Below are positions 27,987 through 28,508 of a DNA stretch of 64,000 nt, piece by piece; the first letter of the stretch is position 1, and every line of letters starts with the position of its first letter. The DNA lies in the sequence record PQ571307, one strand, 5' to 3'. A program made the position numbers and the translations under genes. The notes under the pieces were generated by a model. The model was given only the letters and a program-made list of their open reading frames with translations, was not told the origin of the DNA and did not search any database. This DNA comes from Shigella phage SF1-1.

Positions 27987-28508
27987 TTGCTGATAAAAAA
28001 CTTTGTAACAGTTGCGTTACTATCCTTAACTGCTTTTACATTTACACCTGTTGTGGCGAAAGCCGAAGCTGCAAACGTAAAAACCGCTAAAGTAGTTCAC
28101 AAATGTACAAAGCAATATAATGATAAAATTCTATTAGCTTGTGCAATTTACGCAGAAGGTCGCGGTCTGGGTAAAAAAGGAATGAATGCCGTTGGGAATG
28201 TGGTAATCAACAGAAGAAATGATACCTACTTCCCTAACACAGTCAGAGGAGTTTTGTTCCAGAAAGGGCAATTCTCATATGCGAAAACTTTTAACGTAAC
28301 AGAGAAAGATAAGTGGCAGGAAGCAAAAGCAATAGCGGAGCGTTTACTTTATTTAGAGAAACATTTTCCTGAATTGCGGTCTGTTTTAGATGTTACTAAA
28401 GGTGCTCTATACTTCAAGAAACGGAATATAAGGACACACTGGGAACGTGATATGCGTCTTGTTTATCGAGATAAAGTGCATGGTTTCTATCTACCAAAGG
28501 GGAGTTAA
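27987..28508 (+). CDS. secreted SleB/CwlJ-like cell-wall hydrolase
   Basis: TTG start after AAGGAGG; signal-like N-terminus; motif IYAEGRGLGKKGMNAVGNVVINRR...FPNTVRGVLFQKGQFSY matches the Hydrolase_2 (SleB) core as I recall it. Confidence 0.55.
   Translation: MLIKNFVTVALLSLTAFTFTPVVAKAEAANVKTAKVVHKCTKQYNDKILLACAIYAEGRGLGKKGMNAVGNVVINRRNDTYFPNTVRGVLFQKGQFSYAKTFNVTEKDKWQEAKAIAERLLYLEKHFPELRSVLDVTKGALYFKKRNIRTHWERDMRLVYRDKVHGFYLPKGS

Follow-up and report, generated by a model that had tools for sequence, protein, structure and literature searches.

It is known that canonical holin-dependent endolysins are cytoplasmic enzymes, expressed late and encoded beside holin and/or spanin genes, and that virion-associated hydrolases are part of, or fused to, structural proteins and are assembled in the cytoplasm. 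Holin-independent export has been described as well: the signal-arrest-release (SAR) endolysins of Gram-negative hosts, such as P1 Lyz, phage 21 R, phiKMV gp45 and JG068 gp47, carry an N-terminal hydrophobic export signal, and Lys44 of the Oenococcus phage fOg44 is reportedly made with a cleavable Sec signal peptide, this murein hydrolase being likewise exported without a holin. Outside phages, SleB of Bacillus is a germination-specific lytic transglycosylase. The present analysis concerns a gene located at positions 27987..28508 (+) of a 64,000-nucleotide stretch of DNA from Shigella phage SF1-1 (sequence record PQ571307; this whole stretch is hereafter called the window), which encodes a SleB-type hydrolase of 173 amino acids (aa) with an N-terminal export signal. 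Its closest described counterparts are gp067 of phage phAPEC8 and the orthologues in the genera Phapecoctavirus and Justusliebigvirus, which share the same gene, neighbours, hairpin and promoter, with no substantial difference.

The comparison with the other systems discloses a different combination of features. Unlike a canonical endolysin, the hydrolase has a signal peptide and no holin or spanin neighbour; unlike a virion-associated hydrolase, it is a stand-alone protein of the exported type, encoded in a replication block. A SAR domain has no signal-peptidase site and contains more Gly/Ala, whereas the phage hydrolase has conserved AxA sites; the catalytic fold is also different, and no pinholin is encoded near the hydrolase gene. 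As for Lys44, its host is Gram-positive, and the enzyme belongs to another catalytic family and is the sole endolysin of its phage, encoded within a lysis cassette. The catalytic domain of Bacillus SleB (PDB chains 4F55 and 4FET) has the same fold and an aligned catalytic glutamate motif, at about 25% identity; unlike SleB, the phage protein has no N-terminal peptidoglycan-binding domain, and its substrate cannot be the spore cortex, since the host is Gram-negative and non-sporulating.

The family, fold and catalytic residue of the protein, the features of its export signal, the conservation of its promoter and the context of its gene were all directly observed. Together they make it probable that the product is an exported, holin-independent, accessory murein hydrolase of the periplasm and not a canonical endolysin. 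The gene itself is already known, with annotations in over 60 phage genomes that are nearly identical; RefSeq labels phAPEC8 gp067 (YP_007348567.1) an "endolysin", whereas the GenBank label is "putative cell wall hydrolase SleB". The published records of the phAPEC8-type orthologues carry neither promoter nor signal peptide annotation, and a literature search for enzymology or genetics of this protein or of its homologues in phages of Gram-negative bacteria retrieved none.

Family, fold and export signal of the hydrolase

The scan for open reading frames (ORFs) placed the gene at 27987..28508, TTG 27987 being the earliest possible start downstream of the previous in-frame stop. The features of the gene and of its product are the following:

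27974..27981 (+): Shine-Dalgarno (SD) sequence AAGGAGGC, 6 nucleotides (nt) 5' of the start codon, read from the sequence; its GGAGG is invariant in the seven lineages compared below
27987..28508 (+): coding sequence of the SleB/Hydrolase_2-type hydrolase precursor, 173 aa, with a TTG start and a TAA stop (28506..28508); orthologue of phAPEC8 gp067
27987..28064 (+): signal peptide, residues 1-26, with n-region MLIK, h-region F6-F19, Pro21 and an AxA c-region; cleavage after residue 24 or 28 as alternatives
28104..28106 and 28140..28142 (+): codons of Cys40 and Cys52, the only cysteines, a candidate periplasmic disulfide
28116..28490 (+): SleB-type catalytic domain, residues 44-168, from profile, PDB sequence match and Foldseek; the Glu57 codon is GAA, 28155..28157

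The 4 kb around the gene are 98.2-98.7% identical to Escherichia phages of the genus Phapecoctavirus (Stephanstirmvirinae), for which 20 records were listed; for the same 4 kb, the 95-99% nucleotide identity band comprises 64 records. The close relatives by this match include EF1-1, nepoznato and phAPEC8; the window corresponds roughly to 80.6-144.6 kb of EF1-1, on the opposite strand. At the protein level, the hydrolase is 99.4% identical to the proteins of phages EP57 and Mt1B1_P17.

The first-pass annotation of this DNA had described the product as a SleB/CwlJ-like cell wall hydrolase with an N-terminal export signal, and both statements were borne out. The only Pfam match is Hydrolase_2 (PF07486), whose score of 64.1 bits exceeds the cutoff of 27 (E = 1.9e-17, residues 62-168), and the PHROG 938 "endolysin" profile is matched as well (E = 1.2e-18). 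In a sequence search of the PDB, the matches were limited to SleB catalytic domains, i.e., 4F55 from Bacillus cereus and 4FET from B. anthracis (E = 3.6e-07 and 1.7e-06, respectively, over residues 44-98), where AIYAEGRG of the phage protein aligns with AVYGESRG of SleB around the catalytic Glu, according to the motif Y-x-E-x-R-G. A model built with AlphaFold2 from 18 close homologues was poor (predicted local distance difference test, pLDDT, of 58) and was replaced by one based on an alignment of 34 more diverse sequences, which reached a pLDDT of 84, with most of residues 33-173 above 90. The first three matches of this model in the PDB, searched with Foldseek, are SleB chains (probability 1.00, target-normalised template modelling score of 0.72-0.74), and the fourth drops to E = 1.4 and probability 0.07; among viral models, the named best matches are nearly all "cell wall hydrolase SleB" from many phages.

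Five residues, E57, N75, R76, F96 and H165, are invariant across the 34-sequence alignment. E57 aligns with the Glu of SleB 4F55/4FET and corresponds to the glutamate reported as catalytic in the SleB structure papers. The SleB equivalog profile NCBIfam TIGR02869 gave 51.7 bits, below its cutoff of 236.5, with only profile positions 79-159 matched; the Pfam scan revealed no N-terminal peptidoglycan-binding domain, and fewer than 20 residues separate the signal peptide from the catalytic domain. To judge from its sequence, the phage hydrolase is not SleB proper, because the TIGR02869 cutoff is missed and the N-terminal peptidoglycan-binding domain is absent. The family assignment predicts a lytic transglycosylase that would cut the glycan strands of peptidoglycan.

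The N-terminus has a tripartite layout, MLIK (n-region), FVTVALLSLTAFTF (h-region) and TPVVAKAEA (c-region). A rule-based test combined with hydrophobicity found AxA sites with the -3/-1 rule satisfied after residues 24, 26 and 28 and Pro21 located upstream; the scanned protein has no twin-arginine motif, no lipobox cysteine and no second hydrophobic stretch. The segment FTPVVAKA resembles the tail of the signal peptide of E. coli PhoA, FTPVTKA. A cut after Ala26 would give a product of 147 aa, with a computed mass of 17.0 kDa and a computed isoelectric point (pI) of 9.9. In the 18 homologues (59-99% identity), the c-region drifts to 61% column identity, and small -3/-1 residues are found in every variant read; a drifting c-region in which these residues are kept looks like a signal-peptidase site in use. 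Short classical signal peptides also begin the homologues of naam (rV5-like), KE23 (PVP-SE1-like) and S133 (T5-like). The two cysteines, invariant in the 18-sequence clade and retained in the rV5-like and PVP-SE1-like homologues, would fit a periplasmic protein with a candidate disulfide bond.

Codons 1-43, and with them the signal peptide and the mature N-terminus (27987..28106), are conserved at the nucleotide level; synonymous changes are almost absent there, in contrast to the remainder of the gene. With respect to phage phiWec179, 20/20 codons of the n- and h-regions are identical, whereas in the catalytic core 19 are identical, 16 show synonymous and 22 non-synonymous changes; the identity in 60-nt bins is 1.00 and 0.87 at the 5' coding end versus 0.53-0.77 elsewhere in the gene. 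RNA structure was considered as the cause of this conservation and was rejected, the fold being no better than that of shuffled sequences (z = +0.58).

Other lysis genes and homologues in distant phages

Within about 4 kb of the hydrolase gene, no gene for a membrane protein of the holin, pinholin or spanin kind was found, and the hydrolase is the only ORF in the annotated frames with a hydrophobic segment; a distance of about 12.5 kb separates its gene from the nearest tail gene. The first-pass annotation, which had the gene far from the virion genes and without an adjacent holin-like ORF, was therefore right on both counts, the surrounding block being devoted to replication and metabolism. 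It had also proposed looking for holin or spanin genes elsewhere, and this search was partly rewarded, with spanins disclosed in relatives and a candidate holin in the window.

A canonical lysin is encoded by the relatives of the phage. EF1-1 gp90 is a 166-aa T4 e-type lysozyme without a signal sequence (Pfam Phage_lysozyme, PF00959), sharing about 48% identity with gene e of T4-like phages; its E15, D24 and T30 occupy the positions of E11, D20 and T26, the catalytic residues of T4 lysozyme. As many as 64 phage records contain this lysozyme at 95% identity or more, a number equal to that for the SleB-like gene, and a genome announcement has reported that Phapecoctavirus phages encode two lytic proteins, with PF00959 and PF07486 domains (PMC10793346). 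In the complete genomes of relatives, the genes for an i-spanin and an o-spanin form a pair immediately 5' of the large terminase gene (TerL), in agreement with a spanin census in which phAPEC8 is grouped with phi92 (PMC6139136). One ORF of the window is of interest in this respect:

53474..53716 (-): candidate holin of the tail/baseplate module, a membrane protein of 80 aa that has two hydrophobic segments and ends in a charged C-terminus

This protein matches PHROG 1322 "membrane protein", has no Pfam match and is not annotated as a holin; such a function would be plausible. Another candidate, EF1-1 gp122, annotated as "hol-like chemotaxis protein", was rejected, having no hydrophobic segment. 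Upstream of the holin-like ORF, the window has two overlapping ORFs (53810..54022 and 53713..53907, both on the - strand) in place of the single 103-aa gp167 of EF1-1; this split could come from a frameshift, from an error in sequencing or from a genuine difference.

The first-pass annotation had listed a signal-peptide-exported endolysin among the possible roles of the protein. The export signal stands, but the likeliest role shifts from the endolysin of the phage to a second, accessory murein hydrolase, because the relatives carry a T4 e-type lysozyme and spanins and the window has a holin-like gene in its tail module.

The homologues from other phages point in the same direction. A tblastn search disclosed SleB-like homologues in 1221 phage records, including Vequintavirinae, T5-like phages and the Pseudomonas phages of the genera Pakpunavirus and Nankokuvirus, and in the examples inspected the SleB-like gene is located outside the lysis cassette. 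The proteins of Vequintavirinae (CB7_83 from a Pectobacterium phage, CR3_087 from a Cronobacter phage, rV5-like and PVP-SE1-like) are 33-39% identical over the whole length and also possess a signal peptide, the Cys pair and the catalytic motif; SleB-like proteins with a signal peptide have been reported in all Vequintavirinae genera, and the CB7 homologue was reported to be toxic upon expression in E. coli (PMC7344957). Their gene setting is different, since they lie 5' of rIIA/rIIB or, in Certrevirus, of a small class II holin candidate. As an example, the gene is just upstream of rIIA/rIIB in naam (Vequintavirus, L004 2495..4974) and KE23 (Seunavirus, L005 2504..5453); in naam, it follows MoxR-type ATPase genes, with a canonical terminator immediately 5' of the ribosome-binding site and GTG start, leaving no room for a promoter.

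In a T5-like phage the SleB-like gene is found among early-region genes, and in PaZq-1 and LSL4 (Pakpunavirus/Nankokuvirus) it adjoins the genes for DNA ligase and dCMP deaminase. PAK_P3 gp151 and the T5-like genes annotated as "spore cortex-lytic enzyme precursor" are likewise of the Hydrolase_2 type and located among DNA-metabolism or early genes, away from the lysis genes, with an identity of 33-37% confined to the catalytic part. The orthology of PAK_P3 gp151 (Nankokuvirus) is deduced from the synteny shared with phage LSL4. This gene is expressed both at 3.5 and at 13 min, with a change that is not significant (log2 fold change 0.62, adjusted p = 0.34), and the PAK_P3 authors proposed it as an auxiliary gene for wall degradation during infection and precursor accumulation (PMC4933390). 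The additional lysin varies from one phage to another, being T4 e-type in the relatives of SF1-1, a class I chitinase in LNA4 and, in the T5-like AKFV33, the lysozyme ORF41, accompanied by the holin ORF42; the persistence of a SleB-like gene beside a varying canonical lysin suggests a distinct, accessory role.

Promoter, hairpin and gene neighbourhood

The region between the hydrolase gene and the upstream TerD gene, and the region downstream, contain the following elements:

27906..27925 (+): hairpin GAGGGGGA-GAAA-TCCCCCTC, intrinsic-terminator-like end of the TerD unit, abutting the -35 box
27926..27954 (+): sigma70-type promoter TTGCAA-17-TATACT, with the extended -10 TG at 27946..27947; 9/12 in the consensus scan
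27936..27941 (+): GCCTCT, candidate anti-SD sequence in the promoter spacer, with a predicted pairing to GGAGGC at 27976..27981
28510..34439 (+): remainder of the putative unit, with three small ORFs (28510..29193), four glycosyltransferase genes (29210..32354), a small ORF and a primase/helicase gene

The consensus was matched at 41 sites in 9 kb, the promoter site among them, against a chance expectation of about 23; the site is thus insignificant alone. The region was aligned in seven lineages, i.e., phAPEC8, Justusliebigvirus EC_OE_11 (protein identity 74%), phiWec179 (69%) and four metagenomic contigs (45-61%). The -35 TTG, the extended -10 TGnTAnAnT, the GGAGG and the TTG start are kept (the start with the exception of contig L013, whose protein begins with MEVV), and the spacing of 17 nt holds in four sequences counted by eye. 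The promoter is credible because it is conserved across lineages in which the spacer and the flanks vary. The hairpin, too, is present in all seven lineages, with different stems (GGGGGA/TCCCCC, GAGGGA/TCCCTC, GGGGC/GCCCC); the fold that includes it has z = -3.6, and a T-run follows it in the more distant contigs, the tail not being T-rich in the window. The ASO2A record annotates the same hairpin as a rho-independent terminator, suggesting that it closes the upstream TerD unit and that the promoter opens a new one. The idea that hairpin and promoter form a repeated, mobile "promoter-stem-loop" cassette was rejected, since there is a single copy in the window.

The GCCTCT of the spacer is identical in 5/7 lineages while the adjacent spacer bases vary, and the most diverged contig has no pairing; both sides of the pairing are invariant, without covarying positions. 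As a hypothesis, this element could mask the ribosome-binding site on read-through transcripts only, confining translation to the mRNA initiated at the promoter, since GCCTCT is absent from the latter. A perfect sigma70 consensus, TTGACA-16-TATAAT with TG, was also found at 26931..26958 (+), within ORF 26771..27019 and just 5' of the next small ORF.

As to the extent of the unit, the first-pass annotation had regarded the promoter as the hydrolase gene's own; a conserved sigma70-type site does lie directly upstream, but it does not appear to be dedicated. The next ORF begins at 28510, one base past the TAA of the hydrolase gene, gene spacing is tight or overlapping, and no convincing + strand terminator was seen between the hydrolase gene and position 34424, where the putative unit ends with the terminator GGGCTTCGGCCCTTTT (34424..34439). 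Because the next ORF is one base away and no terminator occurs before 34424..34439, the promoter would head a multi-gene unit of about 6.5 kb, whose genes are probably co-transcribed. The terminator is followed by TTGACA-17-TATACT at 34453..34481, and the corresponding element was annotated by the phAPEC8 authors as a host-dependent promoter; it is reasonable to suppose, from these signals, that the hydrolase gene is expressed by the host RNA polymerase from early infection. The targets of the four glycosyltransferases could be DNA, the virion or the host envelope; relatives have genes of the dTDP-rhamnose pathway elsewhere.

A Ter/Tel-type envelope-stress set of genes is located directly upstream, on the same strand (19424..27887, +):

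19424..19963 (+): Macro
20279..21253 (+): TerC
22879..23469 (+): SprT-like
23466..24578 (+): TelA
25980..26774 (+): vWA-TerF-like
27285..27887 (+): TerD

The gene order vWA-TerF, TerD, hairpin, Hydrolase_2 is retained in metagenomic contigs down to 45% protein identity. In the same region, MKKLALILIGCIFLTAC, a signal of the lipoprotein type that includes a lipobox, comes after an internal start of the 170-aa ORF 21755..22267 (+) and precedes a Gln/Ser/Gly-rich tail; this ORF has no Pfam match.

The role of the hydrolase during infection

Several points weigh against the reading as an exported accessory enzyme. An unregulated, early muralytic activity in the periplasm would be risky for the phage, and the timing is read only from the promoter type and the gene neighbourhood. 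The hydrophobic core is long (about 18 residues), with a hydrophobicity intermediate between those of signal peptides and SAR domains. Neither the lysozyme nor the spanins are encoded within the 64 kb of the window, and it is from relatives about 98% identical that this genome is expected to have them. Finally, the PHROG and RefSeq labels of the hydrolase are "endolysin", and a class II holin candidate lies directly downstream of the Certrevirus homologue (PMC7344957).

These labels and the Certrevirus holin candidate also favour the idea that the hydrolase is the principal endolysin, exported by Sec before lysis like Lys44 and inactive until a holin collapses the membrane potential, with the T4 e-type lysozyme as the accessory enzyme. 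The toxicity of the CB7 homologue in E. coli speaks for it as well (PMC7344957), and one paper names the protein as the sole endolysin of phage SKA64. The labels derive from profiles, though, and the close relatives conserve a T4 e homologue with a full catalytic triad; moreover, no holin or spanin gene is nearby, the promoter is of the host type, the setting is one of replication and metabolism, and T5-like phages hold a separate lysozyme-holin pair in addition to the SleB-like gene. On balance, a principal endolysin is considered unlikely. An even smaller likelihood is assigned to a SAR endolysin, in which an uncleaved N-terminal segment would tether the inactive enzyme to the inner membrane until depolarisation. 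The hydrophobic segment of 18-19 residues, 42% of which are Gly/Ala/Ser/Thr, would suit such a mechanism: a rough sum on the Hessa scale over a 19-residue segment gives 1.63, above the values of two SAR domains (0.5-0.8) and below those of five E. coli signal peptides (2.4-8.1). The column identity of the h-region (92%, versus 82% for the catalytic core) and a Pakpunavirus homologue with an uncleavable-looking N-terminal anchor are in line with it too. The conservation of the h-region, however, is at the nucleotide level, with few synonymous changes, and may reflect something besides protein function; the small -3/-1 residues and the upstream helix-breaking Pro are kept in the 18 homologues despite the drift of the c-region, short classical signal peptides are found on the homologues from three further phage groups, and no pinholin-like gene is adjacent (about 4 kb).

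A role unrelated to lysis would consist of wall turnover for phage development, envelope remodelling together with the Ter/Tel genes, or superinfection exclusion, the last having been suggested by the first-pass annotation. The host-type promoter and the early/middle context agree with it, as do the synteny of vWA-TerF, TerD and hydrolase genes near TerC and TelA, the position of the Vequintavirinae homologues beside rIIA/rIIB and the auxiliary role in wall degradation proposed by the PAK_P3 authors (PMC4933390). Nevertheless, the terminator divides the hydrolase gene, which starts its own unit, from the Ter genes, and an early non-lytic role appears improbable. For superinfection exclusion no supporting evidence emerged, and we know of no precedent for exclusion by a secreted murein hydrolase. 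The virion-associated lysin contemplated in the first-pass annotation is effectively excluded, being topologically implausible for a Sec-exported protein and at odds with the location of the gene.

If the hydrolase is an accessory periplasmic enzyme, as preferred here, the following course of events can be proposed. The host RNA polymerase would transcribe the hydrolase gene first in an early/middle unit, from the conserved extended -10 sigma70 promoter, and the upstream terminator hairpin may insulate this unit from read-through. The TTG start, perhaps together with the occlusion of the SD sequence on read-through RNA, would keep the output low. The precursor would be exported by the host Sec machinery and cleaved by signal peptidase I, most likely after Ala26 (AKA|EA) or Ala28, yielding a mature, very basic periplasmic enzyme of about 17 kDa (pI of about 10) that would cut glycan strands without the aid of a holin. 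The sacculus might thus be weakened or remodelled ahead of the holin-triggered lysis carried out by the T4 e-type lysozyme and the spanins, to which the hydrolase would probably contribute. The Sec export with cleavage, the enzymatic activity, the early timing and the accessory role are inferred.

As a finding in itself this adds little, since the family, the signal peptide and the coexistence of two lytic proteins are already in print. A broader and rather doubtful proposal would be that self-exporting, early/middle SleB-type lytic transglycosylases form a conserved functional class, present in Stephanstirmvirinae, Vequintavirinae, T5-like phages and Pakpunavirus/Nankokuvirus, which would manage the wall during infection rather than accomplish terminal lysis; wall turnover or loosening might be coordinated with TerC/TelA/TerD or with rIIA/rIIB, and translation in the phage studied here would perhaps be gated by the GCCUCU anti-SD sequence. 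A SleB-type enzyme that exports itself is retained by several unrelated groups of large virulent phages, of E. coli as well as of Pseudomonas, even as the canonical endolysin beside it changes from lineage to lineage. An explanation of this, and of what stops a periplasmic muralytic enzyme made before lysis from killing the host too soon, would bear on the timing of lysis, on the management of the envelope by phages and on the choice of enzybiotics, for which this enzyme has the attributes of being small and basic and of needing no holin.

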